Positions 9,001-53,273 of a stretch of 64,000 nucleotides of DNA are shown here, one piece after another. Position 1 is the stretch's first letter, and each line of letters starts with the position of its first letter. Position numbers and translations under genes: made by a program. The notes under the pieces are model-generated. The model worked only from the letters and a program-made list of their open reading frames with translations. It was not told the DNA's origin and did no database searches. The stretch comes from Lytechinus pictus (lineage: Eukaryota): assembly GCF_037042905.1 (NCBI RefSeq), contig NC_087252.1, forward strand, positions 1,986,001 to 2,050,000. The letters run 5' to 3'.

Positions 9001-12000
9001 GCTGTTCAAAGGTATCATTCAATTTCCCCATATCAGACATGGTTACTTTAGACACCATCATCCAGAGCTCGTAAAAAGACAGTTTTCCTAAAATAATGAA
9101 TGTGGGAATAAATGAAAAAAAAGTTTTTGGCAAGTCTGTAACTTAGACAAAAAAAAAACCCATGCAATTCTATAATAATCATGATCAATTCCATTATTTG
9201 TAGATGCTGTTACCAGGACTAGTCACCTAACTGGTTAATGAATACAATTGAAGAAATGAGGCCAAGTTCTCGAAGTGATCCTTTCGCTTCTTTCATCTCT
9301 TCATTAAATTAATTTTGACAACTATTAAAACACTTCATCAGTAAATTTTTCCACATTTATATCCTTGTTTTGTAATCATAGGTTCATATGCATTATATAT
9401 ATTATATACATGATTAAGCTAGTTCTAGTTAATAACTCTGATGTTAGAATGTGTAAAATGTGTTTGACCTTTAATTTTCTTTTTTATCGTATACTCTTAA
9501 ATTATTGTTTTTTAAGGAAAGACTTGTAAAAAGGGAGTCAATATAATGCCACCATTTCAATAGGGCTATTGAGTTTGTCGATTAATCGATTTTAATCGAT
9601 TAAAAGATCACTCAAGGTTTACATCAAATATACCGAGGAAAATGCAAAACTTACAACCATTAAAAAATGTGGTTGGTCCCATTTCTTAATAGCAAAGAAT
9701 GCACTTATCAAAAGGGTAAGGGACGTGTGTAGTCATCCCCTTAAATCCTTAGACTTGACTGTGATAATACCTTTAATTTCCTTAGTTTCCATAAGAGGGT
9801 AACCTTCCTCTATGTCATCGTTACCAGACCCTGTTACGGGGAAGATACAGAGACATTTGAAATAAAATATAAATGTTAATACATGTATCAAATGCAGTTC
9901 TAAATTACAGTAAATCATTGTTTTATTCCGATAATGCCAATTTCCCGAAAGCATATAAGCCATGTACCTAGCACCTTCCGAAACGGCACACAAGGAAAAG
10001 ATTTTATAAGTACACGTTTGTACCTTCCACTATTCCAGATGGATGGTCACAGAATTACATCTACAACATGACAACAGACGTGCAAGAGCGACAAGGTGCA
10101 TATAAAGGTGCTTGCAGTATTGGTAGCAACGTTTGAAAATGCAAAACATATTTTTTCTAACGTTTTGTAGAGCCTGCATCCATTCTGTTCATTCTTGAAT
10201 CTTGAATAAATAATCCCTTCTGCAGCTCATACTGGAAGCTAAACTGGGTGGGTGCATGTGCAGTCAATGGCCGACAGTGACGTTGGAGGTTATTTACTAT
10301 AAAAAGTGGAGGTGTGTGCAAGTAAAAACATGACCATTCAGTTCACAATAACCGGAGTCCAGCAGGTGGCTGCACTGTTAGAAAATAATGAAAGAAGTTC
10401 ATGCAGCAGAGTCTCGAGAACACCTGTTATCTTACCAGATCATGTACAATTACAGGAAATTGGTATTTGGTGTATGGAACCTTACAAATTTCCTTTAATA
10501 AAACGCCCTTTTCCCCTTTTCAAACAGACCTGGTCTGTTAGATTGCAGAAAAAATTCATTTTTTAATGAATTTACAGAATAATTATGTTATTGCTTTCTG
10601 CAACATCTTTTTTTCCCTATAAGATCAGTTTTTTTTATACTTCTGATAACTGGGAAGGCAGCCGCCTGGAAGATATAGTGAGGGAATGTGTGTTGATAGC
10701 TACACTTCTCCGGTAATAATTTTATTAGAAATATTCTAATCATGTGTATTTAGGTGAAAATCACACACACACACAATCTATTCAAAATGTTATATATGCA
10801 AGATTTATTTACACCACCACACCTTCCTTTTATTGATTTCTGAGTTACTTACCTTTACTAACTTTTCTACGATGCCTTCGTAACCAGATCATGAATATGG
10901 AGGCACCAATTACTGTCACGACTCCTAAACTCGCTAAAGGTATTACTGTTAGAGGAATAAGATATTTAGATATTAACATCACATTCTTCATTCAGTCACA
11001 AAATGACAGTAATTTGAATAGAATAAATCGATAGTATTACATTCTTGTGAAATGTAATCAGGGGTTCTTAATTTTATTCAGTGTATATTCACATCGATCA
11101 TAGACACAAGTGCATATAGGACTATATTTCATAAAGGGAAAGAGCAATCGACGTCGGAATAGGCGGATGATAAATGTTACGCGTAACAACACAATTCCAA
11201 GCTCAAAGTTTGCATCAACCATTATAACAATACATCATGTTTTAGTCTGATAAAAACGGCAAATTAGCGATATAATGGTTTCTGTTAACTGATTATCGAT
11301 TCCACAATCACACGGAAATACAAAGCTTTATCTATTGAAAACATATAAAAAAATAATTGTCATCTTGTTCATAGGTTATACAATTGCAGATGAAACTAAA
11401 AGGAAAATTCTCGATATCTCTGTGTCCATTATTTTGTTGCAGAAGAAACAAATGACGGTGAGAACAAACATAATAATTATGATGATTTTAATGATATCAT
11501 GCTGATAACCATCATCATCTTTACCAATAACCATGAGGAGGTTTGTTCCCTTTGGTGGCATTGTTGTCATGGTTGTTGATTCTTCGGGAGCCGAAGTTTG
11601 TTCTTCCGGAAGCCGAACAAATGCTGTCACCGCACGTTCCTTGTGTTGTCCAGGTATGTCTGATGCGACACACACGTATGGCATTTTACTTGGAACTGCA
11701 CTTATGGAAACTGACTTGCTTCTGGTTTCATCGTCATTGATCCATTCTTTCGTCTCGGATGAAGCAATTTTCTCAGTCCCGTGCAAAAAGAACAGGCTCA
11801 GTTTGGGGTAAAAACCAGAAGCATAGCAGTTGAGGTTTACACGGGGGTTTACATTGGTAAGTGTGGTAATGGAACAACCGAAGTCTTGAACAATCGAAGA
11901 CGAGTCATTGCACTCCTTAATGGCCGGGTAAGGTTCTGTAGGTGGCTCTGTGAAAAAGAATTGACCAATCACATGACCATTATAACGCATGATGTACTAT

Positions 12001-20370: not shown

Positions 20371-20594
20371 TTAATTTTTTCCGTCGTGATCTGCATGGTC
20401 TTCCTGGTGTGATTTTGACATAACACCTGCTGATGTGTCTTGATCGCTGTTATTGCGTCCGATGTCTTTATGGTCCTCATCGACCTTTAGCTTGGATGTG
20501 TTTTGATGGTCGCGATGTAAGCTTTGACCATGCGGTCCATTAAGGGAGTTTGCTTTGTCTTTCTCTCTTTGCTTCTTGGACCTCGGTGTGAAAC
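20371..20594 (-). CDS. Gene B terminal exon, hydrophilic tail
   Basis: ataag acceptor; GFTPRSKKQREKDK...DHDGKN*; open in the phase-1 frame in both B and C. Confidence 0.72.
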
Positions 20595-23500
20595 CTTATG
20601 AGAAAAGACGTAGAAATACATTACGAATGTCGAGATTATATATATTATTGTATCACAAATTTGAACATCATTATTATTGTCATCATGGTCATATGTTTTC
20701 TTACAACCGCGTAGCCAGATTTCATTTTGGAGGGGGCGGTAAATGCACGCGAAGCGTGCCAACACTTACAGAGCGCGCGAAGCGCGCTCCCTAGGGGGTG
20801 GGTGCAGGGAGGGGGAGTTTCCCCCTCCCTCGCGAAGCGCGAAGCTTTCGGTGTTTCATAAATTAAAATGAAAAGGAGCCGTTTCTCTTGTCTCTAGTAC
20901 TTATATCAGCCCCAATTTAGTTGACTATATTGTGATTTTGAACCTTGTTTTCAAAAGTGATTGTGAACGCACAAAAAACGGATAAAACTAAAATAATATT
21001 GACCCCCCGCGAAGCGCGGAAGCTAAAGCGTTTTATCATTTTTTTAAAGAAAAGGGTCCCGAGAAATGGGTGTTCTCTAAGTTATCAGTATTGAATACTT
21101 CCCTTGGAAAGTTCAGATTTGATTACAAACAATTTCGCGACAGTTAAACTCGCAAAACAGAGGAGAAGAAAGATATATGCCGGGAGGAAGATATTCCTCC
21201 CCGCGCAGAGCAATGAAACTCTGAAATTTCAAAGGGCGGACGTTTCGTAAATTGTTTTCCCTCTTTGATTATTGAACTTCATTGCAAGGAAAATGGTGCG
21301 CAAAAAGTTGAAACTTCTGTCATTTATTGAAATTATATAAAACAGGATGATGTATAACTTATCCTCATGCGCTTCATTTTGAATGATAAAGAAATTTAAG
21401 TGTCATTCAAAATTTCAAACTGAGGGCGCAAAACAGGACAGGAGATGAATATGTAGGAAATTGACATGAAGTTAAGTAGAATTAGATAAAAAAAAATTTT
21501 GTATTTTTTTAATTTAATACGACACGAATTTTATAACTTCCTCTTTTAAAATTAGAAACCTGTTTGCCCCCTTATGGTTGTTTAGTAATGAGCTGAACAG
21601 TGGGAGAAGTTGCCTATATGGAGGTGACGGCAGAAATTGATATAAGAAATTTACCCACCCGGGGCCGACCCGACCAGAAGTTGCGCGACCAATAAAAAAA
21701 AATATAACTTCATATACTTCGGTCTATCCTTACTCTAATTGCATGCCCTAATGTATATATTTGAACTTTAACTGGTAAGAAACACATATAGCTGAGGTGG
21801 AAAAACAGGGTTAGAGAAAGGGTGAGGAAAACAAAGGAGAACTGCAATATTGCCATTTAACCGCGCGCAGCGCGGAAGCAAAATTCATATATATAAATTT
21901 AGAGCAATTAGAGTGAAGGGGTTTCTTTTTTTTTGAAAAAAAAAGAATAAAAGGAAAGCCCACAAAGCTACCTTTTTCCCCTTTCCTTCCTTCGGTTTTC
22001 CTTTTCTCCTCTCTTTTTTCCCTTCTTTTTTTTTTTTTTTTTTTTTTGGGGGGGGGGGGGCGTCCGCCCCCACCCTGGCTACGCGCCTGTTTTCTTAAGG
22101 TAAACTCCATCAGCGGTTTGTCGTTTATTTGCAAAACATACCTTATACTCCGGGTCACAATTTAACTAGATCTTATTACGTATGATTTGAAAACATGCGT
22201 GAAGTGGCACGTAAGAGAACTTTTGAGTGACAAAACAAAATTGAAGAATAGACGTATTTCTAGATAAGACGAACCAAGGGCATTTGTATAGACTTAAAGG
22301 AATGCTCCAGGCTGAAGATATTTATATTGCAATAAATAGAGTAAAATTCACATAGCAAAATGCTGAAAATTTGATCAAAATCGGATAACAAATAATAAAG
22401 TTATTGCATTCTAAAGATTTGCGTTATTTCGGTGAAACAAATCTAGGCATGTCTTCATGAATATTCATCAGGTGGGCTAATGATGTCATATCCCCACTTG
22501 TTCTTTTGTATTTTATTATATAAAATTAGGTTTATTGAAAATATTTCTACCAAGAACCAAAACGATTGGATTGACAAGTGATTAAGTGCATTAGTTATTT
22601 ATTACTGTAACCTATTTTATCACAATGTAGACACACCATTTACACATGTATGGAAAAAAAAATCAATTATGACTTAATGTAATTGTAGTGTCTAGGAATT
22701 AGACTAGCGAGAATAGTGCCACGGATTTGTAAAAAGTGTTATTACGCAGGAAAACAGATTATACAAGTGAACTGTGTTATCATGTAAAGAAACCGTCTGC
22801 GATGTCATTATTTGTTAGTCGTGTGATTAATTATGTGAATAGTGATCCTACTGAGACGTCCAATGTTACAGTAATAACATGAAAAAAAATATTGTGGGGA
22901 TGTGACATCATTAGCCCACCTAATGAATATTAATGGTGACGTGCATATAACCGTTTTCACAAAATATTTCTAAACTTAAAAATTCGATAACTTTGTGATT
23001 TGCTATCTGATTTTGATGAAATTTTCAGCATTTTGCTCTGTGAAGTTTACTTTATTTATTTAGATATAATTATTCTCAGCCCGGAGCATCCCTTTAACGG
23101 CCAATGGAAAACCGACATGTACTTTATTTTTACGGCGAACATTCGAACTCAGCATGAAAGTCCCAATGGGCCATCTTTGAACTTTTGAACTCTTGCGAAC
23201 TTGGTAATACACGCAAAGGTTTAATTCGTACATAGATTAGTCATCGTAAGATAAATGAATATATCAAAGAAAAAAACCTAGAACAAAATGATTTCTTCTC
23301 TTATTTTTAACATTGTGCTATTTAATCATCTAATTATCGATAAGCGTAAATTGCTTTAATTTCCTATTCAGTTTAAATATTATACTCCACAAAAGTTGCC
23401 GTTCCTAACTTAGGTATAAAGAAGGTAAATTTCGTGGCACAGAAGTGACATAAATCATGTAAATACGTTTTAATATGTTCCGTACCGATAATTATTTCCA

Positions 23501-26500
23501 ATGCTAGTTCCTTGAACCCAGCCTTTAGGAGTCTGTTACTCAGCTCTATCTCTTCATCCCTTGCCATAGGATTTTTTCTGAACATTTCTTCCCAGGTCTC
23601 GAGGACATGCATGAGAGAGATATCTTGGGTTTCCCATAACTTTGTCGTCGGTATATCAAGAATCTGAGCTAATTTCATTGTGACCGCTAATTTGTACTGG
23701 GCGACATCATCTGTACGATCCGATTCTGTCTCTTTACCTATGTAAAGAATACATAAAAAGTAGAAATTTACATCAATATGTATCATTAAACACATATATT
23801 TCATTAAATTAAACTCCGGTAAAAAAAAAAAACTCCGGCAATTGAGTACGTAAGTATTTTTCATTCAGATTTGTAAGTAACCCATATAAAGAAATGCTTG
23901 AATCGACAAGACATTGGGTCAGGTGGCTTATTATAATCACTCGGGTCGCGTTCGCGTTCGAAATCACTCGGGTTTTGGATTTTTGGCGATTTTTTTTATT
24001 TTTTTTTATTTCAATGCGATTTTTTTTTAACGGTGTCTTCAATGGGACAAACACGCTGGGAAAATAAAATGAAATTCAAATTCTAGTTTCGTTTTAAGCC
24101 GGCAAGTGCCTTTAATAAAATGCACTCGCCTACTGCTTAACATAACAAACAAGCAAATCAGCCGTGTGGCTCAACTATCCTAGAATACATCCAGACTTCT
24201 ACTTTTTTTATACGAGGACTCCGAGTCGGAACTTGCCATATCTGCCACATCGATATTACATCGTCATTCCCATGTGCGGACATGCATGCCTGCATGCAAT
24301 GGCCCCAAGGCGGGACCCGGCCACGGTCGGACACGGCGTGCATCGGTAGCATGGAGCAAGCTAGGTAACGTGAGTCGAGCCGAGTTAGATCCCACGTTAC
24401 AGTGCCAGTCAGTCCGCAGCTCGTCCGAAAGTATTTTATTCAGCGGTATGCATAGCCAGCCATCCGTGGTTTAATGCATATATACGTAATTAAACCAAAA
24501 GCTTCGGTCTCCTAATGTTCGTTGTTCCGCTGAACTCCGTTAGCTCCACTCACCAATACAGAGACCGGAGTTCTAGCTCGATCTGTACAGGGACTCAATG
24601 GCCATATGTTTATGCATTAAGTTCCAATAAAACGGGGAAGTGAAGTTGCGCGACAGCCGAAGCAATTAGTTACTGTTTTTTCCCCCTTTTAAGTTTATTT
24701 TCCCTTTTTTGGTGCATTTTAGGACAAAACGGAATAATAATCTTGATTTGATACAGTTCTTTTCATATATTCTTATGAAATAAAGACAAAAATCGATGAG
24801 CGCCGTCTGGGGGATTTTGCATTGTTAACCCCGTAATGATGGTTGCACCATAGCGAGCCGTCTGTGTACGAGGAGAAATGAAAATGTAAAAAAAACTCCT
24901 CGAAACAGGCGGCTGCCAGCTGTCTAATACGTAATGAGCTTTGAGGACGATCTTTCCGATCGGCGTTTTAAAATTCTGCTCTTAAATTGTTGTCCATTTC
25001 TCATAAAATGTTTCTTATTTTATAGATAAAATGGCCATATCATGTTTTAAGTAACTGGAGACCTAAAAAATTCCCTACCTAAATTCTCGAAACATTGCAT
25101 TAGGTGATGTGCTTAATTGATCTTCTTTGTGCTCGCGTGCCAAACGTATACGTTGAGCTGAACGGGGATCAGTCTTTCTCTCTCTCTCTGTCTCTCCTAC
25201 CTTTCCGAAATTAAAACGGTCCCTCGATCGGACACAGTTATTTAGACGCAGGACAAATAATGCTCTGACAACCAAACACACTTTTCGTCAGCATCAGTAA
25301 AAATGTGAATGGGCTTTTAAAAACTAATACTAAAACTGATCTAAAATTGATCTTAGATCGATTTTAAAATTGATTTCATCGCGCGTGCTTGCGACTTCTA
25401 CTACATTTTAATTGCACTTGCGACTTTAAGATGATGCGTTGTATGAGAGCAAGAGATCATTGCAATAATTCTAAATCGCTAGCACTTAAAAATACTTATA
25501 AATGATGTCCCGCCGATCGTTCATTAATCTGTGATTTATGAGAATTATTTTCATCTTATTTTCATTTGCGACTTTGCTCGGAAGATGCGTCTTTCATTTA
25601 TCTTTCTAATACAAATCACTCGGTTTATTTCAAAGCAGTAACACCTCAAAACCCCTTTAAAACATGTTCCAAACGATCGCGCATGTTGGCGACTTCCATT
25701 CCAATGCATTTGTCTTTGTGACTTTGTCAGGAAGATGCGCGCGATCGCGAACAAAATTTTGATGTATTCCTTTGTATTTAAACATCGCCGATTCGATTTT
25801 CGATTTTAAATCGATTTTAAAAGCTCAAACATACTTAAGACAGTTGGCTAGCCACGATATCACCTTACCAATCCCTATTACTTACTCCTCCTTTAGGGCT
25901 CTCCCTGTATTGATAAACATTAAAATCCCATAGACGGAGCCCTAAAGGAGGACTAAATAATAAGGATTGACAAGGCGATATCGTGGCTAGCCAACTGTCT
26001 CAGAAATGTTTGAGCTTTTAAAACCAATTTGAAATACGATTTTACAATCGATTGTAAAATTGATTTCAAAATCGATTTTATAATCAATTTTAAATTCATA
26101 ATCAACCAAATTATTCCATCAACCCCTCTTTTCCCTTCAAAACCACTCTGCCACTTTCAGACAGTCGGCTAGCCACGATATCGCTTGTCAATCCTTATTA
26201 TTTAGTCCTCCTTTAGGGCTCCGTCTATGGGATTTTAATGTTTATAAATACAGGGAGAGCCCTAAAGGAGGAGTAAGTAATAGGGATTGATAAGGCGATA
26301 TCGTGGCTAGCCAACTGTCATTACGTATTAGACAGCTGGCAGCCGCCTGTTTCGAGGAGTTTTTTAACATTTTTATTTCTCCTCGTACACAGACGGCTCG
26401 CTATGGTGCAACCATCATTACGGGGTTAAAAATGCAAAATCCCCCAGACGGCGCTCATCGATTTTTGTCTTTATTTCATAAAAATATATGAACAAAACTG

Positions 26501-29294
26501 TATCAAATAAAGATTATTATTCCGTTTTGTCCTAAAATGCACCAAAAAAAGGGAAAATAAACTTAAAAGGGGAAAAACAGTAACAGTAACTTCGGTCTCT
26601 GTATTGGTGAGTGGAGCTAACGGAGTTCAGCGGAACAACGAACATTAGGAGACCGAAGTTTTTGGTCTAATTACGTATATATGCATTAAACCACGGATGG
26701 CTGGCTATGCATACAGCTGAATAAAATACTTTCGGACGAGCTGCGGACTGACTGGCACTGTAACGTGGGATCTAACTCGGCTCGACTCACGTTACCTAGC
26801 TTGCTCCATGCTACCGATGCACGCCGTGTCCGACCGTGGCCGAGTCCCGCCTTGGGGCTATTGCATGCAGGCATGCATGTCCGCACATGGGAATGACGAT
26901 GTAATATCGATGTGGCAGATATGACAAGTTCCGACTCGGAGTCCTCGTATAAAAAAAAGTAGAAGTCTGGATGTATTCTAGGATAGTTGAGCCACATGGC
27001 TGATTTGCTTGTTTGTTATGTTAAGCAGTAGGCGAGTGCATTTTATTAAAGGCACTTGCCGGCTTAAAACGAAACTAGAATTTGAATTTCATTTTATTTT
27101 CCCAGCGTGTTTGTCCCATTGAAGACACCGTTAGAAAAAAAATCGCATTGAAAAAAAAAAAAAAAATCGCCAAAAATCCAAAACCCGAGTGATTTCGAAC
27201 GCGACCCGAGTGATTTCGAACGCGAACGCGACCCGAGTGATTATAATAAGCCGGTCAGGTGCATAAAAAAGTAGCAACGGCTTTTGCGTGGATTTTACTT
27301 GATTCCGTTTGCATAAAACTGAGCGAGAAAATGCTTTTGATAGTAAGTTCAAGCAATTGCCAACTGACTGCTAGTATTTCCTTGACAATTAAGCTATTGC
27401 TAAAAAGCGTATGCGTAAAGCGAGCATTTTGCTTGTGCGTTTAAGCACTTGCTTGGGTTTTTTCAAGCTCCGTAAGAGCATCGTAAGCGTTTGCTTGACC
27501 AGGGCGTTCGAGTTTCTTATCATATTTATGAACCTGAGAGAAAACCCCAAGCGGTACAGAAGTCTACATGTGCATGTTTTCTTCCTCACGGTAAGTGCAA
27601 CCAAATGCCAAATATGTACAATTATAAAAAAGAAATGAGTTTGTTTGACACCAAGTCTTAGGAAAAGTTGTTATAAGAAGTGCTAATTTGCACTGCCACA
27701 TCTTTGTGCTCGAGACCTGCCTTTTTCTGTGAGTCGCGTGACGTCGCTAATGTTCAAACCGCTACCAATTACTTTCTGAAGGAAGTAAAAGGGTTCAAGC
27801 ACTAGTAAAGGGTTATGCCTATGAAAATGAAGCAATTGATGAGGCATGATCTTTTGCTTGGTCAGCTGTTGCTTTTGCTTGAAGCAACCTCTTGCCATTT
27901 TTTTATGCATCTGACTCAATCATGAAAATGAATGTCTTGCCAAAAATTAAAACGTGAAAACATTTTGCTCCAACATAAGATTGGGAGGGCGGGGGGGGGG
28001 GGGGGGGGTTCGAGATTTATCCTTAAAACATATCATTATCATTACGAAGGTGAAAGTAAAACGCAATGTGTTCATTAGATTGCATTATCTGGATGGATGA
28101 CCTTAGTATTATCCTTCCTACCACTATTAAGCTTAATGTGCTCTGATGTAGGATCTGTTGAAGAATCAATCGATATCTCTTTAGCCCTGTCTGTATCAAC
28201 TGTTCGCTGGCTGTCATCTTCCGGGATTGCAACTTCATTATCGGTTTGGAGCGCTTGATCAGGCAACTTCTTTGGCTCTCTAACTTCGAGGATCTTCCTG
28301 ACCAATGATGGCTCGAAAGACTCTATATTATTGATTAACTCCTGAAAGACAGCTGCGTTCTTACTGCAATCTCCAAGGTAAGTCCCTGCAAGAAATGAAT
28401 CAACATGGTAGCTATCGGTTTGATATTGCTATGAATCACATTAATTCTCCAACATGAAAAATAAAACCCTGATAACATTGGTACTAATGCCAAACTGTAC
28501 TTTTTTTATGAGGACGCTTGATAGATTATGCTCTATGTTGACTGTACGTACAAATTATGATAAAACTCTTTGACTACATAATTCTCAGCTATAATCATGA
28601 TAATGGAACGTGGGCCGAATCAGAATGTGGGTTCTTAAGAAGTCCCCTTGGAATAACTTTTGTTTTCTCGTTCTTAAATGAATTTCATAAGAAGGTACCA
28701 GGTTTGCTCATCTTCGATCGAGTTCGAGGAAAAAAGAGAATGGCATAGGTTATTTACCTAGGATCAAACTTACCGAAGAGGATTCCATCAGCTATGTCTT
28801 TACCTTGGACGGGATAGATTGCATCAGCAAGAGATGTTCTTGAATTGTAAGTTGGTGGATGGACCATGAACTTCCAATCTCTTATTATGGTAATCACACT
28901 GCTCCTTTGGCCCATTCCTAAGTTCTTAGAAATTCTATTTAGAGCTTCTTGATAATCCTTTGATTTCTTAAATAGTGCAAATGCATCAGCTAGAGATGTT
29001 TCATGACCTATAAGGTGGGGAATAAACATTAGGTATTCAAGAAAAACCATTCTAATACTTACTTATTACGTAACGTTATATATTGATGTATGCTGCTGAA
29101 AAGTAAAGAGTATTGTTTTTCTCTTTCGAAACAATGGTGACGTAAAAAACTATTAGGTAGGACGAAAATAATTATCTTTCCACTCTGACTTCCTATATGT
29201 CTGTTGTCATGATGCAAATATATTTACTCCAGTGATGACCAATAGGATCACACACGTCTCATGAATTGAATATTAGATTCTGCAATACGAGACT

Positions 29295-29337
<43 letters not shown>

Positions 29338-32300
29338 CGGTGTTTTTCTCTATCATGGGACCATGACTTGTGGAATATTGAGTAAGAAATAACCGACATT
29401 GTTGGTTATCAACATTATACCTATCATTTGATCATACGATATATATTATCCATTATACATAAATGAAACGATTGAATTACCACATCCAATTAATACGGCT
29501 ATGTCCTTGTATCCAATCTTTGAAAGAACTTCCCTTAATTTCTTCCTATCTCCTTTGATGAAGTCATGAAGTTTTATTAATACAGCAGTAGTTCCCTTAG
29601 TGAGATGGTCAGGTGCGTACTGGACTCTGTATTTTGTTAATGTCTCGTCAGAAATATCAAGAGCCTTCGCTAGCGGATACACATCTTCGAGGAGTAGGCG
29701 GAAGGCAATGTCAAGTAACTCGCATAGACCTACGTTGTTCGACCTCGTGGTGAGAAGGTCTTTAAATAAAACATCCAGAAAAATATGAACAATAATCTTG
29801 TGCCATTAAAAGTACTCTCTATTGTTTGATTGTGGTCAAAGTTAGGTTTGTGACCGAACGTGATTCGACACCTGAAACTTTTCTTTGAAGACTTACATAT
29901 AATTTTGTTCTGTATGACATCAATAGCAAATTTAGTTGAAGGGAGTAACATTAATAATATACGTTTACAACTAACTTTATCTCTATAGAAGACCTGATAA
30001 TAAAGACCTTTCTCATGCAATCTATATCATGATTAGCATCCATAAATTCACAGAGGGTATTCAAATAGCCTCCCCTCGAAATATGCACTCAAATGTGCTA
30101 ATGCGCAACTATTCTGCCTTTCCTTCATTGTCCATAATCATATAATAGGATCAAACCCAATGTACACCATGTACACTGGAAATATTTTGTGTCTTTAACT
30201 GCAAGTTTTGGCCAACAATATCAACAATTTACATTTAGTTATTTTCAGATGTATGAATAACGTCTAACAGCAAAATGAACAAACCTTCTACACGTAAATG
30301 CATGGAAACAAGATCCTGCTAAAACCAAGTCATAATTATTTGGCATGTTTTGATCGTTTTCGAGTGAAATTGTTGTATTTTGTAGCATTCTAAATTAATT
30401 TCCATAAAGTGCGTAGGCCTATTTTTTCTATAAGGCCTTTGGCCCGTTTCTGCGGAATCAAAGTATATTTACCCATAACTTTTGCTGATTTCAGCTTTTC
30501 ACGGAGTTTATTCTCAACGTTCTCTTTCGGATGCTTTGTCATCCAACCTCGAGCATACGCTCCTATCACATCCGCATAAGTACCACCTTCTTGGTCTCCT
30601 CCGAAAGCTCGTTTGACTTTGTCATGCTTATATGTGGGAAGGCAGGCAGCGATTCTAAGAACCTCGTCATTGATGGAGTCACTGAGCAGATTATCCGGAG
30701 TCTTCACGGTGTTAACTGGGGATTAATGTGAATTGAATTTATCTCTTAGGACATCATTTGCATTTGTCACTATTCTTGTTCGAAACGAAATTACAAAGTA
30801 GCACAAAGCAAATATTCAATATGAGGAACATTGGCAATTAAACAAAAACATATTAACAGTATTGCATCAAATCTTAAGTTTTCTTTCAGTAAGTATCTCA
30901 AGACATGAATAATAGAAAAGTGGGACAAGCATGCAGGGGGAAAAGAGAGTGTGTAAATGAGGGAGGGGGGGGGGTGGCGAAGGATGACGAAGAGAGTGAT
31001 ATGAAGAAAATAGACGAAAACAAAATATCGTCAATCATTACCTGAATACCTTATGTAAAATACAATGTGATAGACATATAAAGTGTTTTTAAGTGCCACA
31101 AAAAAATACGCGTTTCATTTGCAAGTAACATGATAAATAAGCCCTAAACAAATAGTCTATGAGGAGGGGATGACGGATAATAAAACTGATGGGTGGACAT
31201 TTCCAAATTATGTGGTCACTCCAAATTAAAGAATATTGGTTTCAAACTTGTTGGAAATACTCAATTTATTAACGACACATTATCTTATAAAGCACTATTT
31301 GAAACACTTGCTATATATCATTTAAACACTAGCTTTATATCATTATTTCCCTAGTCTTTTGGTTAAATTGAATTGTATTTGTTCTTTTTATATTCATTTT
31401 TTTAACCTGTTGTATCAGGACCATGATGTAAAACAGCTGTGCTGATCATGTTTTTATCCTGCATAAATAAATTCAAATAAATAATAAATAAATAAATATT
31501 TCGTAATGCCGTAGATAAGCCTTTCTAACAAGTAATGTCAAGTAGGGAAAACTTACTGTATGTTCAAATCATTTTGAGATAACTTCGAGGAAGCTTATAG
31601 CGACGGAGAGATCTTTTTTTTTAGAATCCCGAAGAAGACCAATCAAAGCATTTTGATATCATAAAAATGATTTTGCCCGAGCTAACTATATGATATTAAT
31701 GATTTGATGATTTTTTTTTCTTGAAAAGTGAGTAAATGTTGGGTGGGGGGTAACAGACCATTCCCTTATCAGAAAAGTGCGCGTGTGTATGTGTGCATGA
31801 ATATTAATTTTCCCGGTATTTTTGATTTTGTACCTTTTACATGTTTTAAATGGCCAGATGATCTTCTTCCATGTTGAATTCCCAGGTCTCTGCCAGGGTT
31901 AAGGTCTTTCCACAGCTCATCTGTATGAAACATATCATACATATGTGCATGTAAGAAAGGGTAGTTGATATCATAATTTAATAAACGTTTTTTTTGTATT
32001 ATGAAAAACATTACAACTGAAATTTCAATATCAAAGTATTTTAGTAAAAAAAAAAAAATATGTGGACACAGTGGAAAAAAGGCAATATTTTTTTTCTCCT
32101 GACCTTTGTACAAATATACGGATTAAAAATAAGGTATGCTAAAATAAATCTGACTGCAGGAAGTGAAAAAAAACATTGGTCAAAATGTCAAAATTTATGG
32201 ATATAAAGTGGTCTGAGACTAATGTCAGTGCAAACTCCATAGCAGTGCACAATTTTGCATTCGCTTAGTCTTTAAATTCAATCCCTTTTTTAATATAAAT

Positions 32301-35300
32301 TTTGTTTGTCCTGAAATTCCAATTCACCAGAATAATTGAATTCAGTTGCATAAACGGGCTAACTGCTAAAGGGGTGGTGGTGGAGGGCGTTATGGTCGTG
32401 TGTATGTATATATTTAGGATAAATATGTGCAAGTCATTTTTTTTCGCGTGTGTTGGAAAGTGTGTTGCCATTGTAACATAATTTATAGCAAAAAATAGGT
32501 ACAAATCTGGCAGTTAGAATACTTCCTCTTTTTTATAATCAATTCTATTTGGTCTTGAGGTGAAGATGTGCAAGAGACATTTTGTTGAGTGTGTCTGAAA
32601 TCTTGTTTCCATGGTAACAAGATATTATTCGGCAAAAATTAGATTAAAATCTTGCGATTTGAGCTACTTCATCAGTTTTCAACCAATTCTTATGAGATTT
32701 GGCTCAAGTTGGTTTTGAGTTAAAAATGTGCATGACGCAATTTTTACATTTGTCAGACATCGCGTTTCCATGGTAAACAGATACTATAGCCAGAAATGCA
32801 GGGAACTCCTTGTGAATCAAACTAATTCCCCATTTTTTAGCCAGTGCTCATAAAAATTGGCACAAATATTCATCTTGGGCTAAATATTCATATTCATTAT
32901 TAAATGTCTTCAAACCGCATTACAATGATTACGTCATAGGACACGTTTAGCCCGTTTATGAACCTGAATTCAACTATTCTGGTGTATTTGGATTTCAGGA
33001 CAAACATAATTTTTGTTCAAAAGGATTTGAATCTAAAGACTAATAAAGCAAAATTATACACTGCTATGGAGTTTTGCACTGGCACTAGTCTATATATCAG
33101 ACCACTTTACATTCTTAAATTTTGACATTTTTGTCACTGTTCCTGCAGTCAGATTTTTTGAGCATATTCTACGTTTAATCCTCATATAGATACAAAGGTA
33201 TGGAGGAAAAAATCATGCTTTTGCCCACCGTGTCCACCTCTGGGATATTTTCCACGCTATAAAGAGACCATACTATTTATGCCTATCATATGAGACAAAT
33301 CGGGCTAATCGGCTGCTTTATTAGACAATTTCTTTGCTCATTATAACTAAGGCACAGACGTCACAGCCATGGATCTCTCGTCATCTATTTTTCATGATGA
33401 TTCTACTCTCCAAACATTAACCACGTTAACCATCACCATATTTTAGTCTCAAAATCAAGTTTGTTAAATCATATATACATGTAATACAGTACGACAATAC
33501 GCCAGACGGTGGCCTGTACTTATAGAGAAGAAGAATATCATATTACTATGACCTTTTATGTCTTGTCGACCAATGCTGTCTAATGCCTCACGAAGCTTCA
33601 ACTTTTTTTCGTAATTGCTGCATGCCGCTTGTCTGATCCAGTCATTTACCATCGCCTCCGTTTCGAACAGGGTGGCTTTATTTGCAGTAACTATTGCGTC
33701 CTCTTTCAAGTCGATATCTACACACTGCAACAAAGATTTAACGTGTCGACTCGTCAACCTGTCGGTAAACCCTTCAATCTCACTGTCGATGAGGTCAACT
33801 ATGTGGTGATGTGGCACTTGAAGTTAACAAATGAAATCAAGATTAAATTCGGATCAAACCTTGGTACCAAATTTAAAATCAATATTTTAAAAGCTGTAAA
33901 AAAAATCAGAATATGGAGGAATAGGATTAAAAGTACAACTTCTTTCTTTAAATCTAAATCACATGATCAGATGGTGAAATTAAAATTATAAATATTGTTG
34001 ACCATGACTTTGTAAAAACCTCTTTTGAAAGGACAAAATCTAATTTGATAACTTTAAGATAATATAGCCTATTGACGGACACAACTTTTCAAACACCCCA
34101 CAACAATCATACCTGAAACAAAATGTTTACCTTTGAAAAATAATCTGTCTATTGGTCTACATTCAGTCTTCTCCAGAGCATGACTTAGCAAGATAATTGG
34201 GTTCTCATCAAGATCTTGTTGTTTCCATTCTACTACATGTTTCATTGCCTCCTTGATGTCGCTGTGATGAATTATTTGTGAGTCACCATCAGATGAGATT
34301 TTGCCAGTTACCTTCTGTATGAAGCGTCCAAGTTTGCCAGGATCTTTTATTTGCCATAGGATATGTTCGATTGTGTCCTCTAAGACATTTGTTCTCCCCA
34401 TTTCTCTGAGTTCTGAACAAAATGTAATTTGTGAGTTGCTAAAAAGATTTACGTTATACAGATCGCTGTCAGATTTAAAACATAGAAAGTTTGATATCTC
34501 GCAAAGAAAAAAAATGCGTGGTCAATATAGTCGTCCAATATTTATCAATCTTCTACAGTTTTTCTTATATTTGAGTAATGAGAATCATTTTTTTTTTTCG
34601 AGAAAAAGAGTGAAAATATTTTCTGAATTAACCTTCAAAGAATTCTAAACCTTACAGCAAAGTTCAGGTTCTGGTTATTGAAAAGCATTATGAATAAAGA
34701 AAAAAAAAATATTGCAAGTTTAAAAAATTCGCAATCATGAGAACCAGAATTTTCATCTTTTTTAGAAATATTTCCAGAGTTAAATACCCAAACAGGAGAT
34801 TGATTTCCATTTTTTTCAAATGTCCAACCCACAATATTATAACTCCATCTGGATATTAAAGATAGAGTCACAGTTCCCCTATTAATCACTTCACTTATCC
34901 ATTGGTTTAGTTTGGGTTTTGTATTTTCGTTGTAGGAAACTCTGCGAGATCTTCCGTTGGGAAGTCATTTCCTCTATTGGAAGAGTCGGAATTGCACCAT
35001 TTTTTTAAATGCTAAAAAAAGAAGACCCCCCCACAAAAAAACCAATGACAACCATCTGCTCAAGTCCTACTTTAACTCCATAAGTATCATATCTGTAAAT
35101 ACTTCTAGGCGACGTACCCATTATATCTTTCCATGCTTCCTTGAAATTAGCCTTCGTTAGTGCATCAAGTAATAGCTTTCCTTGATGAACCGTTGTGCTT
35201 TGCCTTTTCCAATCACACAGAACAACATATATCTCTTCTTCTGTCAGCCTATCTCCTGCTTCCAAACTAAGGTTGTCAAATATAGCCTGTGCACCACACC

Positions 35301-38300
35301 CATGTTGAACCATCATCCGGCTCAATTTCCAAAGTTCGGGAAACGATATCATTCCTGGAAAAGATTTTAATATGAAAACGATAACGCATAGCTTTAAAAT
35401 ATCTATATTTCTTATTGTTAGCCAATATTATTCTTTTTTTTTTCGTTTATTTTATTCTTTTAATTTTTCTCCCCTACACAAGCTAACTCGTATCAAGTGT
35501 TTCACTCTCTTTTAATGTCTTTATTATAAATGAACATCGTATGAAGTTCTTACCGGCGAAAAAGTTCCTGCTGATATCTGAGCATCCAGACTTAGCTAAA
35601 GCAAGGCTTAGGACAGCATTCGGGTTTTCAACGAAACGGCTGCATCGCCATTCCATGAACAACTTTATTGCTTCATTTTGGTCTTTTACATTTCCATGTA
35701 AATTAGGTAAATCAGCTCCACCAGCGTAAAGCTTACGAAGAAGTTGTTGAATTTTCTGGGGATCTACAATGTCTGTTATTATCTGTTCTACGGTTGCCTG
35801 TGGAACTTTTTTATCCGTTTGTTTTCGCTGCTCTGTAAGATGAAACGACATACACTGATTAATAATTATCAATGGTTATTCCCAGTATATTTCCATCTAT
35901 CGAAATGCAAACATATCATTTATATGCAAGGTATACAAAACAATTCGAAACACGGTATACTTGTTGACGGTAACTTAAAGAAAATACTGAATTATGAATC
36001 AGAAGTTTGTTATTGGACACCTTCATAATATCGATTGAGTTTCATCCACTACCATATTTCATGAACATTGCTCTGATTAATTATCTTAGTTTATTGATAA
36101 ACAATTTAATACATTATGTGTTCACTAAAATTTTACCTCGCAATTAATTACAGTATGGAAGCTTAAAAGTGCCACCAATATGTTCATATAATCATCTCTT
36201 CGTGTCAACATCTCTAAGGAAAAACGACAAGATGACGAGATCACGGATCTCCTCATGTCTACATCCCGTGGGAGAGATGATCAGATATGACAAGATCTTA
36301 GATCTCGTCATGTCTACATCCCGTGTGAGAGATGATCAGATAACAAGATCTTGGATCTCGTCATGTCTACACCTCATATAAGAGATGATCAGATGGCAAG
36401 ATCTCGTCACGTCTGCATCCTGTGGGAGAGATGATCAGATGGCAAGATCTCGGATCTAAGATATTGCCATCTTATCATCTCTTCTAAAACAGACATGACG
36501 AGATCCTAGATCTTGCCATGTGATCATCTCTCCCACATGATGTAGACATGACGAGATCTAAGATCTTGTCATCTGATCATATATTCTAACAGATGTCGAC
36601 ATGACGAGATCCAAGATCTTGTCATCTGATCATATCTTCTAACAGATGTAGACATGACGAGATCCAATATCTTCTAACAGATGTCGACATGACGAGATCC
36701 AAGATCTTGTCATCTGATCATATCTTCTAACAGATGTAGACATGACGAGATCCAAGATCTTGTCATCCGATCATATCTTCTAACAGATGTAGACATTACG
36801 ATATCCAAGATCTTGTCATCTGATCATCTCTCACACGAGATGTAGACCTCGTCATCTTATTCTTTTCCCTAAGAGATGTAAACTTGACGAGACGATTATA
36901 TGGACATCTGGGTGGCACTTTTAAGTTTCCATATTACAGTGCAGCATTTTCGACCCTGTTCTGTTGCATGAACAAAAAATAGTAATATCTGTTTTGGTAG
37001 TTATACCGAAAGTAGTAATATCAAAATTTTTAAAAGTACCACATAGATTCTGCCATCGCGTCCCAAAATTTGCATTTTGCAACGCTGATTGAAGTTTGTT
37101 GGCATGTTTATCGCTTCTATGTTCATCTTTCCATTTGCAGAGAAGATTGTATACTTCAGGTGCCCTCATCTCTTCTGTTGCATCCTTAATACCAAGATTA
37201 AGAAGGGCCTGATGTAATTTCTTCATATCACTGATCGATGTGTCATACGCGAGTGACCAGAGTTCGTAGAAGGATATTTCACCTGGTAATGAACAAAGCA
37301 ATTAATGAAACAATCTTGTCAGTTGAAAAGCAAAGTTCGGGATGATATTTATTCAAAATATAAAATGCACATGACTCTATGCAAATAGTCAATATCCACA
37401 ATACAACATGTCTTACACACTCGTAGTTTGATCACGCCCTTAGCATTTCACATTTTAGAAAGTCAATAACGTTCAAAATTCATTTTTTCTCTCGCAAGGG
37501 TACTTTACACATGACTAAAAATAAAGCACTAATGTACTAAGATTGGATAAATAGATCACATATACAATTTTGCAGCACTATTGAAAATAGTGGAAAATTG
37601 TCATTATTTTAATTCATGTATACTTTCACCTTTTAACACTTCAGTTAGAAGTTAAACGAATCATAAGATTGCTACAACAAACATTGCCGACGGAAGCCAA
37701 AAAAAATTAGGGGGGGGGGAAACCACCAATTTTTTTTTGAAAAGCAAAAAAAAAAGGTTAGCAACCAAAATTTTAGGGGGGGTGACCGACAAAATTTTTT
37801 GACAAGCAAAAAAAGGGGTAAAAATGTAAGGGGGGATCCACCTCAAATTAAGGGGGGGGGGGGGACAGGTCCCCCGCTTCCGCCGCCTATGACAACAAAC
37901 ATCATACAGACCTCACTGCCAATCTTACCATCAATATGTGCTTGTTCAATCATAGGGATACTTTCCTGGCCATCATTTCTCGCGATAGTACGATCTAAAT
38001 GAAATAATGTTTCATTGAATCATTAATAGTACAAATAAATATCTAATCACAATATATTCGTACGTTTGAGAAATGACAAACAAATTACAAGAGAGCGAGA
38101 TCAAATTTTGCCTTTATATAATTTCAAAAAAATTATACATGAACACAATCAACACAGAAACTCACCCGTCAACCGAAGGGAACATGCTAAGAAAAAAAAA
38201 TCGAATTAGAGAGAAGCATATTTATTGCAATTCTTTAATATCGGGTTTCTTGATATCATCATACCTCATTTAAGGATTTACTGTAAGCAACATAATTTTC

Positions 38301-41300
38301 CCTCAATAATGTAAATCATTACCTTCACACTGCTCTGTGGCTATGTTCGAAAGATCGTTAATCCTCAATTACTGTTTATTTCTTGCACGTGCTTAGTTAT
38401 ATTGGCTTTAATATTGCGCCGTGGATTTTCCCGGCATATTTCGAATAAAGTTTTATATCAATTATCGCGTTAGTCTACAATAAGAAATGGATTAATAAAT
38501 ATGCCAATCAATAACTGCACAAACCAATATATTCAATGTTCATACCCGTTGTTGTCGTGCCATCAAAAGTGTTCTGCCGAAAACACGCAAGACGTTTCAA
38601 CCGAAGAAACACTGCAATCGCTCCAAGAAGAATAAGGACGAACAGTGGAACAACTGCAGATCATCAGTGCGTTGAAAATGATTTAGAGAGGAAAGAAAGT
38701 TTTAATCAGCCAGACAAGTCAATAAAAGGTTCGTAAAATATTAGCTGAAATTTTTTTTATCAAAGAACATACATACAAATACCATCACGCACATACACAT
38801 GCTATAAGTTCCCTTTTTCCAATTGCCTTTTTTAACGGAACTGTTTTGAAGTAATAATTTGGCATGAATGTTACGGCAACCATTTACTTATATGGTGTTA
38901 GCACTCGATTTCTCCAACGTCACGTAATCTAAAGGTTTCAAAAATTACAAGGGAAATCCTGAGGGACATATGAGGACATTTCTCGATTGCCTGACATTCA
39001 AACATTTTTTAACAGTTTATTGAGCTCGGTTAAAATATTGTCACCATTCTTACATTTTCATGCTAAAATCCACTATTCATTTTCAAAATGAGGTTTTTTT
39101 TTCAGCAAATGTTTCCTCTCATATAGGAGGTTGTAGCCATATCATGGTTAGGTTGACACGATTTACGACTCATGCAAAATGCTTTAATATACCTTGGCCT
39201 TTGATAGGTGACGATTATGCCTAAACATGCATGTGCTATAGAGGGGCCCGGGAATGGGGTATTTTCACCAAAAGGGTCGACCACCGATATATTTTTCTTT
39301 GTTTTATTCTAAATTTGTGAGTTGAACATGACTACTTTAGTCAAAAAAAATATTTGGTTTTCTGAAGCATCCCCCAGTAAAGCATTCACGAACGAGGCGT
39401 CATGAAAAAAGAAACAACCAATTAATGAAACAGTCGACACTTCATTCACACACAGCCAACAGCCGCGCACACATTTATCAACAACTTTAAGACCGTAAGA
39501 ATAGAAATGCACCAAGAAATATTGCATATCATTGAATACAAACATAGACCTACTTGTTTGCATTGAAAATTTCCCCTGGAATAGGCGCTTGATATAGTAG
39601 TAATATCTTATGTTTTCTTTTGAGATTGTTTTATAATTTCTGTAAAGAAATAAAGTAACGAAAATTACCAATTTTAGCTGCACGGTTACCAGTTCTTTCT
39701 TCTTTCGTAATATCAACAGTTGTGAATGCTCTACTCGTTCCTGTAACCGAGGGCATTCCAGTCGATGACTCCACGAAGATCGTTGCGGCTTGCTGTTCTC
39801 CTGTCCCAGGAATATTAGAAGCAACACAAATGTATTGAGTTTGACTTGGTTGGGCTTCAATGGAAATAGACTTATTTTTCGTCCCGTCATCATTACCCCA
39901 TTCCTTGGCAACAGCATTCATCTTCTGAGAACCATGCAAGAAGAAAAGGTCTATCTGTGGATAGTAATTCGTCACTGAGCAAGTTAAGACGATGGTTGTA
40001 TTAGTCAGGACACGACATGATGGCTCTGTTGTATTTAGGCCAGGTGATACTGTATCAGTACACTGGTTGATAGTTGGAAATGGTTCTTGTGGTGGAGCTG
40101 AAAGAAAGAGGCAAGGCAAGGTGAAGGTCACATGGCAATTTCAAGTTATAATGAACATAACTTGTTTGCACAAACAACGTCAAAGTGTTACTTTCCTATC
40201 TGAATAGATTTAGTGCTTTTCGGGTGATTATCATTCACGTTAATGAATTCCAAATGGATAACATCCTTTACAGGGATGATGTAAAGTGTCATGAGACTCA
40301 TTAATAAAACATCCAAGGTATCTTTGAAGCTTAGATCAATTTGAAAGAAAAAAAACTTCCCATTAGGATAATTAGGATAATTAGGAATACAATTTATGTA
40401 GGGCATAAACTCCAGTGGTGGTTACGATTAACAATCTAAAAATCATCTTGAACAGCATCCAATGAAATGACACCCGAAATGCATTATAACAAATGAAAAA
40501 AATAAAAATAAACACGTGCCAAATTATCGTAGAGGAAAATGTATAATTGCTGAGAAATTGACCAACAACCATGTCATTTGAGTTGGATGTATGGAAAAGG
40601 AAAAACAGATCTAGATGTTTATGATGAAATTAATCTTGACTTTATAAAGACTTTCTGATGGAGAATTTAATTCGCTACATTATCACGAATATCGCCCTAC
40701 TCTTACCATAGATCTTCACATCGGTTTGGTTGTACATCAGGATACCAAGGTAGTTCGATACCCGGCATATGTATCGACCTTCATCTTCTATCCGGGCATC
40801 TCTGATGGTCAGTGAATAGTTCGAAGCCATGTCACACCGGCTGTCCTGGGTACATAGTCCGGTTGTTTTTCTCGTCCCTTCCATATTTACCCAGGTGAAA
40901 AGATTGTCCGCAGTTTCGAGTTCATCGCCTTTCTTCCAGTAGACAGCAACGGGCACTCGGTAAAACTCACATTTTAGAACGATATCGTCCCCTTTTTTGA
41001 TGGCTTTGTTGAGATCCGTGAAAACGCGGCCGTCTGGTACATCTCCAGCAACACCTTTGAAATTCATATGAATATGAGTACCTTATTTAAAAACTTATTT
41101 GATAACAATTTAAAATTAGTAAAAGAAGACCGAGAGAGGGAGAGATTAATCGGCATGCCCCGCCCCCACCCAACCAACCAACAAATTGGTTTGTTATTCC
41201 CTACGATAAAACATAAATGACTAGGTCACACACACACACATACACACCCTCACACACATGCACACTTTTCAAACCCACGCGCCTACCATCACTCTGTCTC

Positions 41301-41749
41301 ACACGCACACACACAGTCCAGACCCACACCACCCCGAAAACAGAGACCAACACAAAAATGTGCATATACCTACATACACACCCATCGAACCACAGACACG
41401 CCCGCCCACCCCACCCAATACACATGAATATAAATGCTCCACCACATGATAATTATGTATGACCTCCTTGGACGACAATTCCCTATACTTTCCAAAGAAT
41501 ACGTTAAAATGTCCCAGCTTATAGAACATGGGGGGAAGAAACACACAATGCTCAGGGTTAACTGCTTCATTCATGGTCTCCGATGAAGATTACTCTCAAA
41601 ACATTCCTACTGAACAGAGGAATATGCTTACTGTTAAAAACAATAAGAATGTTAATCTACATAAATTATAAATACTTACACCATATAGAGCATGAGAATA
41701 GGAGACACCCCACGCCTAAAGAGAGTAATGATTTCCGTTTATCGTCCAT
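20371..41749 (-). CDS. Gene B: complete Ig(V)-Ig(C1-like)-TM receptor with ~9 tandem death-fold-like domains, ~1302 aa (1315 with two optional micro-exons)
   Basis: Exons 41749-41680, 41054-40707, 40097-39669, 38653-38546, [38340-38323], [38186-38166], 37994-37929, 37282-37040, 35832-35554, 35354-35118, 34412-34131, 33816-33553, 31920-31834, 30715-30473, 29759-29481, 29007-28774, 28385-28122, 23737-23486, 20594-20371(TAA). All AG/GT, all phase 1, every internal exon a multiple of 3. Confidence 0.85.
20704..22089. mobile_element. Non-autonomous hAT-like element rich in gcgcgaagcgcg
   Basis: TIR ..cgcgtagccag / ctggctacgcgcctg; 8-bp TSD ttttctta (20696-20703, 22090-22097); empty site near 54813. 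Confidence 0.85.
22298..23093. mobile_element. Kolobok-like non-autonomous element
   Basis: TTAA|aggaatgctccaggctga ... tcagcccggagcatccct|TTAA; counterpart at ~55370-55970 with a partial tandem duplicate from ~54987. Confidence 0.78.
23486..23737 (-). CDS. Gene B last death-like unit (type g)
   Basis: MKLAQILDIP...VLETW...LSNRLLKAGFKELA; 252 nt; intact copy in C. Confidence 0.78.
23925..27252. mobile_element. Foldback-type element, 3328 bp, ~1 kb inverted arms, 8-bp TSD
   Basis: ggcttattataatcactcggg ... cccgagtgattataataagcc; arms ~23925-24936 and ~26318-27252; ggtcaggt at 23917-23924 and 27253-27260; single ggtcaggt at the empty site near 56783. Confidence 0.92.
27253..27916. mobile_element. 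MITE whose end was the foldback target; copy at ~56781-57393
   Basis: gtcaggtgcataaaaaagtagcaa ... ttgccatttttttatgcatctgac. Confidence 0.7.
28122..28385 (-). CDS. Gene B helix plus acidic linker exon
   Basis: GTYLGDCSKNAAVFQELINNI...EHIKLNSG|GTAGGA; 264 nt, same length in C; unspliced frame runs on to TAA at 28075. Confidence 0.68.
28774..29007 (-). CDS. Gene B death-like unit, type f
   Basis: GHETSLAD...RDWKF...LADAIYPV...ILFG|GTAAGT; 234 nt. Confidence 0.8.
29297..29333. repeat. (GA)n microsatellite
   Basis: Direct reading. Confidence 0.9.
29481..29759 (-). CDS. Gene B death domain, type e
   Basis: ELLDIAFRLLLEDVYPLAKALDIS...LREVLSKIGYKDIA; 279 nt. Confidence 0.82.
30473..30715 (-). 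CDS. Gene B death-like unit, type d
   Basis: INDEVLRIAACL...GWMTK...KLREKLKSAK; 243 nt. Confidence 0.75.
31834..31920 (-). CDS. Gene B linker exon
   Basis: DELWKDLNPGRDLGIQHGRRSSGHLKHVKG; 87 nt, phase 1-1; ends KHVKG vs KHAEG in A. Confidence 0.65.
32060..33240. mobile_element. Decayed DNA element with ~300 bp imperfect inverted repeats
   Basis: atctgactgcaggaa...caaactccatagcagtg mirrored by cactgctatggagtttt...ttcctgcagtcagat. Confidence 0.65.
33553..33816 (-). CDS. Gene B death domain, type c
   Basis: FTDRLTSRH...AMVNDW...LREALDSIGRQDI; 264 nt; splice sites weaker (caag acceptor, GTCATA donor). Confidence 0.75.
34131..34412 (-). CDS. Gene B death-like unit b2
   Basis: EHILW...VEW...DENPIILLSHALEKTEC; 282 nt. 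Confidence 0.8.
35118..35354 (-). CDS. Gene B death-like unit a2
   Basis: MISFPELW...LCDWK...LLDALTKANF; 237 nt. Confidence 0.8.
35554..35832 (-). CDS. Gene B death-like unit b1
   Basis: EQII...MEW...ENPNAVLSLALAKSGC; 279 nt. Confidence 0.8.
36167..36920. mobile_element. TTAA-flanked (Kolobok-like) element with internal inverted arrays of ~50-55 bp repeats
   Basis: TTAA|aagtgccacc ... ggtggcactt|TTAA; unit gatgtagacatgacgagatccaagatcttgtcatctgatcat. Confidence 0.8.
37040..37282 (-). CDS. Gene B death-like unit a1
   Basis: EISFYELW...LCKWK...LQSALQNANF; 243 nt. Confidence 0.8.
37929..37994 (-). CDS. Gene B juxtamembrane exon
   Basis: DRTIARNDGQESIPMIEQAHIDG; tttag/GTAAGA; 66 nt. Confidence 0.72.
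38546..38653 (-). CDS. Gene B transmembrane exon
   Basis: VVPLFVLILLGAIAVFL then RLKR; tgcag/GTATGA; 108 nt. Confidence 0.85.
39669..40097 (-). CDS. Gene B Ig C1-like domain plus stalk exon
   Basis: LTCSVTNYYP...NDDGT...YICVAS; 429 nt. Confidence 0.88.
40707..41054 (-). CDS. Gene B Ig V-type domain exon
   Basis: VLKC...VYWKKG...YSLTIRDARIEDEGRYICRV; 348 nt. Confidence 0.92.
41680..41749 (-). CDS. Gene B exon 1, signal peptide
   Basis: caaaATG; MDDKRKSLLSLGVGCLLFSCSIW then T|GTAAGT, phase 1. Confidence 0.75.

Positions 41750-51237: not shown

Positions 51238-51274
<37 letters not shown>

Positions 51275-53159: not shown

Positions 53160-53273
<114 letters not shown>

Follow-up and report, generated by a model that had tools for sequence, protein, structure and literature searches.

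The window analysed here is a stretch of 64,000 nucleotides (nt) from the sea urchin Lytechinus pictus (RefSeq assembly GCF_037042905.1, contig NC_087252.1, positions 1,986,001 to 2,050,000 of the forward strand). All positions below are those of the window. It has a GC content of 36% and carries three related minus-strand genes, which we call A, B and C. A sequence-only reading had proposed that gene B is one gene of about 1300 amino acids (aa), running from an ATG at 41749 to a TAA at 20371 across a 4.4 kb intron that holds a foldback element. Is gene B spliced as one gene across this intron, and what might its protein do? We found that gene B is a spliced gene whose full model is already catalogued in RefSeq. 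Its product has a signal peptide, two immunoglobulin (Ig) domains, a stalk, one membrane helix, ten helical modules encoded by one exon each, and a charged tail. Three of the modules are predicted, and the others are likely, to be death folds.

Gene model and splicing of gene B

Gene B has 17 exons on the minus strand (41749 to 20371) and encodes 1302 aa. All introns are GT-AG and all are in phase 1. An 18-exon trial model built from splice sites had 3930 nt and 1309 aa, with 0 internal stops and only GT-AG, phase 1 introns. Leaving out a 21-nt candidate exon at 38186-38166 gave the 17 exons and 1302 aa. This product is identical to P0017, which is RefSeq XP_063959096.1 (L. pictus LOC135154836), a record named "uncharacterized" in which only the Ig domains are above the Pfam cut-off. 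Random windows sized like gene B exons (234-429 nt) were open in 1-3.5% of cases. The proposed start, stop and single long gene match the RefSeq model, and the exon count, given earlier as 17-19, is 17. The annotation gap implied by the sequence-only reading was not found; RefSeq holds the complete model across the foldback intron, and our model by itself adds nothing to RefSeq.

The 21-nt candidate exon has good splice signals, yet it is skipped in two contigs of the sequencing run described below, is missing from RefSeq and has an altered acceptor in a related contig. It was rejected as a constitutive exon. The alternative acceptors 41081 and 33798 and the alternative donor 39690 were ruled out by RefSeq; acceptor 33816 was also fixed by a contig joint. 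An out-of-frame upstream ATG opens an 8-codon frame at 41739-41765 (minus strand) that overlaps the gene B start codon and could lower translation. An identical partial copy of gene B lies on a 22-kb scaffold and is probably an assembly duplicate.

The transcript evidence consisted of contigs from one sequencing run, X1, the kind of which is not stated. We read X1 as RNA solely because its contigs skip exact GT-AG introns; some of them contain intron sequence. The run contained 0.37 of the words sampled from the window. Its contigs support 13 of the 16 gene B junctions, 11 of them with gene B's own letters, including one (intron 15) that is inferred. At 98% likeness, contig joints removed exactly introns 2, 4, 7, 9, 11, 12 and 13 (609, 551, 199, 314, 1118, 713 and 473 nt). 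The intron 4 joint was seen in two contigs, and the intron 11 joint had 83 letters on the exon 11 side. Loose contig ends, read by eye, added introns 6 and 8 in gene B letters and intron 5 in paralog letters. When likeness was set at 90%, joints of 2891 nt and 388 nt corresponded to introns 16 and 14. The intron 14 contig carries 32 differences, which suggests that it comes from a third relative. No junction for introns 1, 3 or 10 was present among the X1 contigs. At 98%, few or no contigs covered exons 1 and 3, which carries no weight either way; exon 1 is the same in RefSeq, and the exon 3 donor (39669) was taken from RefSeq and the paralog only. A further spliced X1 contig on 28120-28384 is 88% like exon 15 and differs from both B and C at five listed places; it may derive from a third close paralog or from a divergent allele.

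The two junctions that matter most to the 3' end, 28122>23737 (intron 15) and 23486>20594 (intron 16), had been singled out for checking. Intron 16 is crossed by a 560-nt gene B contig with 0 differences, which continues into the 3' untranslated region; an AATAAA stands at 20036. For intron 15 (4384 nt), one contig at 90% likeness joins 23735 to 28121 and carries a copy-C base. We therefore compared the X1 contigs with a word-graph simulation of spliced gene B and paralog C transcripts. The simulation reproduced the 560-nt gene B contig and a 279-nt contig of C across intron 15 (18 differences). The simulated gene B piece across intron 15 begins at 28209, which is the start register of a 228-nt X1 contig with 0 differences. 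Because of this register and the lack of differences, the 228-nt contig is read as gene B spliced across intron 15. It is shorter than the simulated 279 nt, a shortfall we ascribe to a further branch in the word graph. Both junctions thus hold, that of intron 15 in a gene B-specific form that we infer from contig register and not from a printed joint.

Intron 15 contains a non-coding foldback insertion of 3328 nt (23925..27252) with nested inverted arms (outer 671 nt at 94% identity, inner 270 nt at 96%) and an 8-nt target duplication. It has no stop-free frame longer than 109 aa, and no transposase was seen in it. Copy C has an empty site near 56790, in a corresponding intron of 1009 nt, which indicates that the element inserted after the B/C duplication. 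With its long inverted arms, target duplication and empty site, the element belongs to the foldback transposon class. It is alike in structure to the sea urchin foldback element of Liebermann 1983 and to Tetris, which also have long modular inverted arms, no coding frame and an 8-nt target duplication; an excerpt of PMC4079207 gives 8-10 nt for Tetris. On the contig evidence, the 3.3-kb insertion would not prevent correct splicing of its intron. A gene predictor had been feared to split or truncate the model at this intron. No such split affects gene B; one is found in upstream paralog C, which is divided into records of 807 aa and 506 aa. The corresponding intron of C lacks the foldback element.

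Ectodomain, membrane helix and cytoplasmic modules

The start codon and a hydrophobic signal peptide (aa 1-23) are encoded by exon 1 (41680..41749). Exon 2 (40707..41054, joined to exon 3 in a contig) encodes a V/I-type Ig domain, aa 24-139, which scored 36.9 bits for Ig_3, 36.1 for I-set and 30.3 for V-set, each above the Pfam cut-off. The Ig core residues C52, W63 and C120 are nearly invariant among 20 sequences. In P0001, a paralog C protein, one of two extra V-domain cysteines is lost (residues 91-97); gene B and most relatives keep it. A second Ig domain, probably of C type, and a stalk (aa 140-282) come from exon 3 (39669..40097). Its C1-set match (E 0.001) reached 19.7 bits against a cut-off of 21, and 24.1 bits in paralog C. 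Exon 4 (38546..38653) encodes a transmembrane helix followed by basic stop-transfer residues, aa 283-318, with hydropathy up to 2.77, and exon 5 (37929..37994) a juxtamembrane linker, aa 319-340, that is identical in the paralog. A hydropathy scan, which is not a dedicated predictor, found just two hydrophobic stretches in the product, aa 6-29 and aa 276-307, and a type I membrane topology is predicted. Dimer prediction for the ectodomain gave a score of 0.00, which counts neither for nor against pairing.

On the cytoplasmic side are ten modules, each 78-94 aa long, arranged as a b a' b' c d e f g h. We folded aa from module b through the tail as one model of 880 aa, which is all helical with a mean predicted local distance difference test (pLDDT) of 75.4 and a predicted template modelling score (pTM) of 0.72. 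This pTM is compatible with the modules packing together. Module b, the linker of exon 11, half of module g and the tail had low confidence. A fold search against 48,161 solved chains placed three predicted module models on death-fold bundles (DD, DED, CARD or PYD). Module a' (exon 8, 35118..35354, aa 515-593) matched the death domain 2of5_A at Z 8.9, with a root-mean-square deviation (rmsd) of 2.5 over 81 aligned residues. Module b' (exon 9, 34131..34412, aa 594-687), folded singly with a pLDDT of 72 into 4-5 helices, matched the viral FLIP 7pdj_A at Z 8.2 (rmsd 1.9, 73 aligned) and 2of5_A at Z 7.9. Module f (exon 14, 28774..29007, aa 979-1056) matched the viral FLIP MC159, 2f1s_A, at Z 7.0 (rmsd 2.9, 71 aligned). 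In the searches of the two models, titles naming death-fold proteins filled 41 of the 50 top matches each, as counted by eye, and domains of Fas, FADD, TRADD, RIPK1 and p75NTR and the death domains of UNC5H2 and ankyrin G were among the fold matches. As the Z values are moderate, it is this agreement among titles that carries the case. We conclude that a', b' and f are predicted death folds, of DD or DED subtype.

The other modules are likely death folds by sequence and profile similarity. Module a (exon 6, 37040..37282, aa 341-421), with a Pfam Death match at E 0.022, and module b (exon 7, 35554..35832, aa 422-514) are sequence copies of a' (E 6e-9) and b' (E 6e-13). Profile comparison linked f to h at 96% (E 1e-9 to 1e-8), g to h at 72-86%, e to f at 77-83%, c to f at 75-79% and c to d at 67-74%. 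Module c (exon 10, 33553..33816, aa 688-775) has relatives that weakly match Pfam Death. It is followed by a 29-aa linker of low pLDDT (exon 11, 31834..31920, aa 776-804) and by module d (exon 12, 30473..30715, aa 805-885), a probable death fold modelled at a pLDDT of ~57-77. At module e (exon 13, 29481..29759, aa 886-978) the Strongylocentrotus purpuratus relative P0018 passes Pfam Death (PF00531) with 33.1 bits. Module g (exon 15, 28122..28385, aa 1057-1144) is half decayed in B and C; its second half has a pLDDT below 50 and a helical counterpart in relatives. Module h (exon 16, 23486..23737, aa 1145-1228) is covered by 0-difference contigs, and exon 17 (20371..20594, aa 1229-1302) supplies the charged, mostly disordered tail and the stop. 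Among 41 relatives, two passed Pfam Death: P0018 in module e, and P0044 when its matches were summed. On module alignments at E 0.01, the counts were 0 of 19 for a, 2 of 22 for e, 2 of 23 for c and 0 of 14 for h. Language-model neighbours of the modules were Death and DED clusters (0.78-0.82), which is a lead only.

Paralogs and growth of the family

A profile of five cytoplasmic regions matched 132 proteins among 1.84 billion. The 20 that were identified by species are all from sea urchins: L. pictus, L. variegatus, S. purpuratus, Diadema setosum and D. antillarum. One 42.4-Mb L. pictus contig carries ten family records. Downstream paralog A (1..13854, minus strand) runs off the window and has the same layout with one a-b pair, as found by tblastn and the module map; by inspection, its exons match P0009, which is LOC135154835. 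Of upstream paralog C, the window contains the final four exons (54483..58478, minus strand), which are open, have GT-AG introns and show 63-91% aa identity to gene B. They form the 3' part of LOC135154970; the earlier exons lie outside the window. The 807-aa record of C, LOC135154837, matches B residues 1-804 at 83%, and its 506-aa record, LOC135154970, matches B residues 805-1302 at 86%. From this complementary fit and a shared contig, we infer that the two are one gene, and the records should be merged.

A segmental duplication (14425-29144 and 50806-58616, 79-89% identity) takes in the 3' end and the downstream spacer of both B and C. The similarity ends near 58616, which implies that intron 13 of C is longer than 5.5 kb, against 473 nt in B. 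Module order is fixed as a-b-c-d-e-f-g-h across the tandem family, with both order and number retained from Diadema through to Lytechinus. There is one a-b unit in A, two in each of B and C, and three in each of P0004 and P0013. Both the conserved order and the one to three a-b copies are expected from duplication of phase-1 exons, and the sequence comparisons indicate that the gene grew in this way, in gene B by duplication of the a-b pair.

The V exon is 78% identical between B and C, and the next three exons are 96-100% identical (Fisher p 1.4e-5). The ratio of nonsynonymous to synonymous substitution (dN/dS) between B and C is 0.74 for exon 14, 0.25 for exon 15 and 0.87 for exon 16, and 0.52 when pooled. 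These values do not show positive selection, and the 14-of-23 patch in the V domain was picked after viewing.

Some family records depart from the common layout. P0011 and P0033 are database models with the inner modules ahead of the Ig domains, and are probably adjacent tandem genes fused by annotation. P0050, P0053, P0101 and P0066 form a subfamily with three Ig domains and the later modules only; two of them lie on another S. purpuratus contig.

Proposed function and its alternatives

We propose, at a little short of an even chance, that gene B encodes a receptor for recognition that carries its own death-fold scaffold. Once clustered, its tails would recruit death-fold adaptors and so set off immune or cell-death signalling. 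Death folds are known to bind one another and to form helical oligomers. The outer V domain would bind a microbial or cell-surface ligand, and clustering of the ectodomains would bring the tails together. The covalently linked modules could then serve as a seed that is already in place, where death receptors with a single domain must first assemble an oligomer, and this seed may recruit FADD-, RIPK-, MyD88- or caspase-8-like partners. If the tail does seed adaptor assembly, it would combine in one chain a complex for which other animals need many subunits. A precedent for such wiring in an echinoderm is AjNLRC4 of Apostichopus japonicus, a membrane receptor with outer Ig domains joined to an innate-immune module. 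According to an excerpt of PMC8699970, its Ig region binds microbes; it differs from gene B in an inner NACHT domain and two membrane helices, and the likeness is one of architecture. The gene B protein itself has no NACHT and no TIR domain by Pfam at E 0.1, and in this it is unlike NLR or TLR/IL-1R proteins.

A wider form of this proposal is possible but unlikely. In it, sea urchins would use clustered, fast-changing Ig receptors whose eight to ten linked modules make up a helical seed built in advance, similar to the Myddosome or the death-inducing signalling complex. The seed would be tuned by a-b duplication (one to three copies) and by exon exchange between neighbours, and the whole would make up a class of innate or self-recognition receptors missed by domain-based inventories. 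Domain searches were the basis of the urchin immune inventories, and the modules fall below the Pfam cut-off, so a multigene Ig/death-fold family could have been passed over. Literature searches on the architecture and the gene identifier, covering listings and the starts of abstracts, returned no paper describing the family; the 2006 urchin immune and apoptosis inventories and their supplements were outside this search and may list members. The text of PMC11688612 contains neither "immunoglobulin" nor "death", and an excerpt of PMC2575513 names no receptor combining Ig with multiple death domains.

Several points weigh against the receptor-scaffold proposal. No gene B module reaches the Pfam Death cut-off (16.4 bits for the whole protein against 22.6). 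The Z values of 7-9 lie within the range that, according to the fold tool, helical bundles can reach by common arrangement, and the fold matches included none of modules c, d, e, g and h. Foldseek returned 0 matches at E 0.001 with either model; its hits, when re-inspected, comprised a' plus a weak b' row and nothing further. In profile searches of solved structures, no hit fell below E 0.04. By profile, module a is tied only weakly to the other modules, and the links between modules lack a negative control. The V domain is no more variable than the C domain across 16 family members, so the contrast between B and C may reflect exon conversion rather than ligand-driven change; conversion accounts for it as well as selection does. 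Finally, the proposed function is drawn from sequence and models, and the RNA support comes from a single run.

The first alternative is that gene B is an inhibitory or decoy receptor, in which the death-fold chain would soak up adaptors or cap filaments as FLIP does, which would damp cell death or inflammation on recognition of self by the Ig part. Viral FLIP domains are the top fold matches of b' and f and a tied match of a', the modules have diverged too far for Pfam, and the gene was retained with one module decayed. Against this, ordinary death domains tie within 1 Z, a shared fold by itself shows no function, and the tail has no immunoreceptor tyrosine-based inhibitory or switch motif (ITIM/ITSM). 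We consider such a role improbable. FLIP, the tandem DED of caspase-8 and the tandem CARD of RIG-I are alike in having linked death folds, and their single domains matched at Z 5.4-8.2. These tandem proteins are cytoplasmic and have two domains, and no fold match spanned two gene B modules as a tandem pair at a higher Z.

A second alternative, likewise of small probability, is adhesion or self-recognition. Here the partners of the Ig pair would be related Ig proteins of other cells, and the modules would pack into a structural body that gives neither a death nor an immune output. The language-model neighbours of the ectodomain are cell adhesion molecules (0.86-0.87, a lead only), the pTM of the long model permits a closed body, and the ankyrin G death domain is among the fold matches. 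Clustered Ig families serve allorecognition in Hydractinia, as an excerpt of PMC9546547 reports. What speaks against it is that module order and number have been kept from Diadema to Lytechinus, beyond the needs of a spacer.

A third is a dependence-type receptor like UNC5 or p75NTR, in which bound ligand would keep the tail folded shut, and absence of ligand would lead to its release or cleavage and so to death of the cell. UNC5 netrin receptors have two Ig domains, one membrane helix and a death domain. Gene B shares the Ig pair, the single helix and the predicted death fold, and its modules matched the death domains of UNC5H2 (Z 6.4) and p75NTR. Unlike UNC5, it has no TSP1, ZU5 or UPA domain (none at E 0.1 by Pfam, and the modelled tail is all helical), has ten modules and belongs to a multigene urchin cluster. 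The tail contains eight DxxD sites; such sites are frequent by chance, and the count has no control. We regard this role as very unlikely. TNFR-family death receptors (Fas, TNFR1, p75NTR) are likewise type I membrane proteins with a cytoplasmic death fold, which in gene B is predicted. They carry a single death domain, against ten modules in gene B, and have cysteine-rich repeats outside, where gene B has an Ig ectodomain; Pfam found no TNFR repeats there, only Ig families. An excerpt of PMC6394757 reports just three death-domain TNFRs in S. purpuratus. In outline gene B thus resembles death receptors and UNC5, yet it belongs to neither group.

Last, a main product that stops at the read-through stop at 28075, with exons 16 and 17 unused or part of another gene, has a negligible chance: reading beyond the exon 15 donor does meet that stop, the B-specific intron 15 junction comes from register, and X1 includes intron-holding contigs, but contigs join exons 15-16-17 in B, C and the third relative, no AATAAA or ATTAAA lies between 28121 and 27253, module h closes the array in relatives, and the RefSeq model includes exons 16 and 17. 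Transcripts always ending near 28075, named by the sequence-only reading as the case against its model, are thus largely refuted as the sole form.

The window also contains other repeated elements. A broken non-LTR (long terminal repeat) retroelement at 46668-48821 (minus strand) has two overlapping frames with matches to RVT_1 (E 3e-19) and zf-RVT (E 1e-5). Intron 6 of gene B holds an array of ~53-nt repeats in two opposed orientations (36154-36933). Short inverted-repeat elements occupy 32062-33237 in intron 10 and 22294-23097 in intron 16; the latter has matching elements in copy C, and its depth in run X1 is very high.

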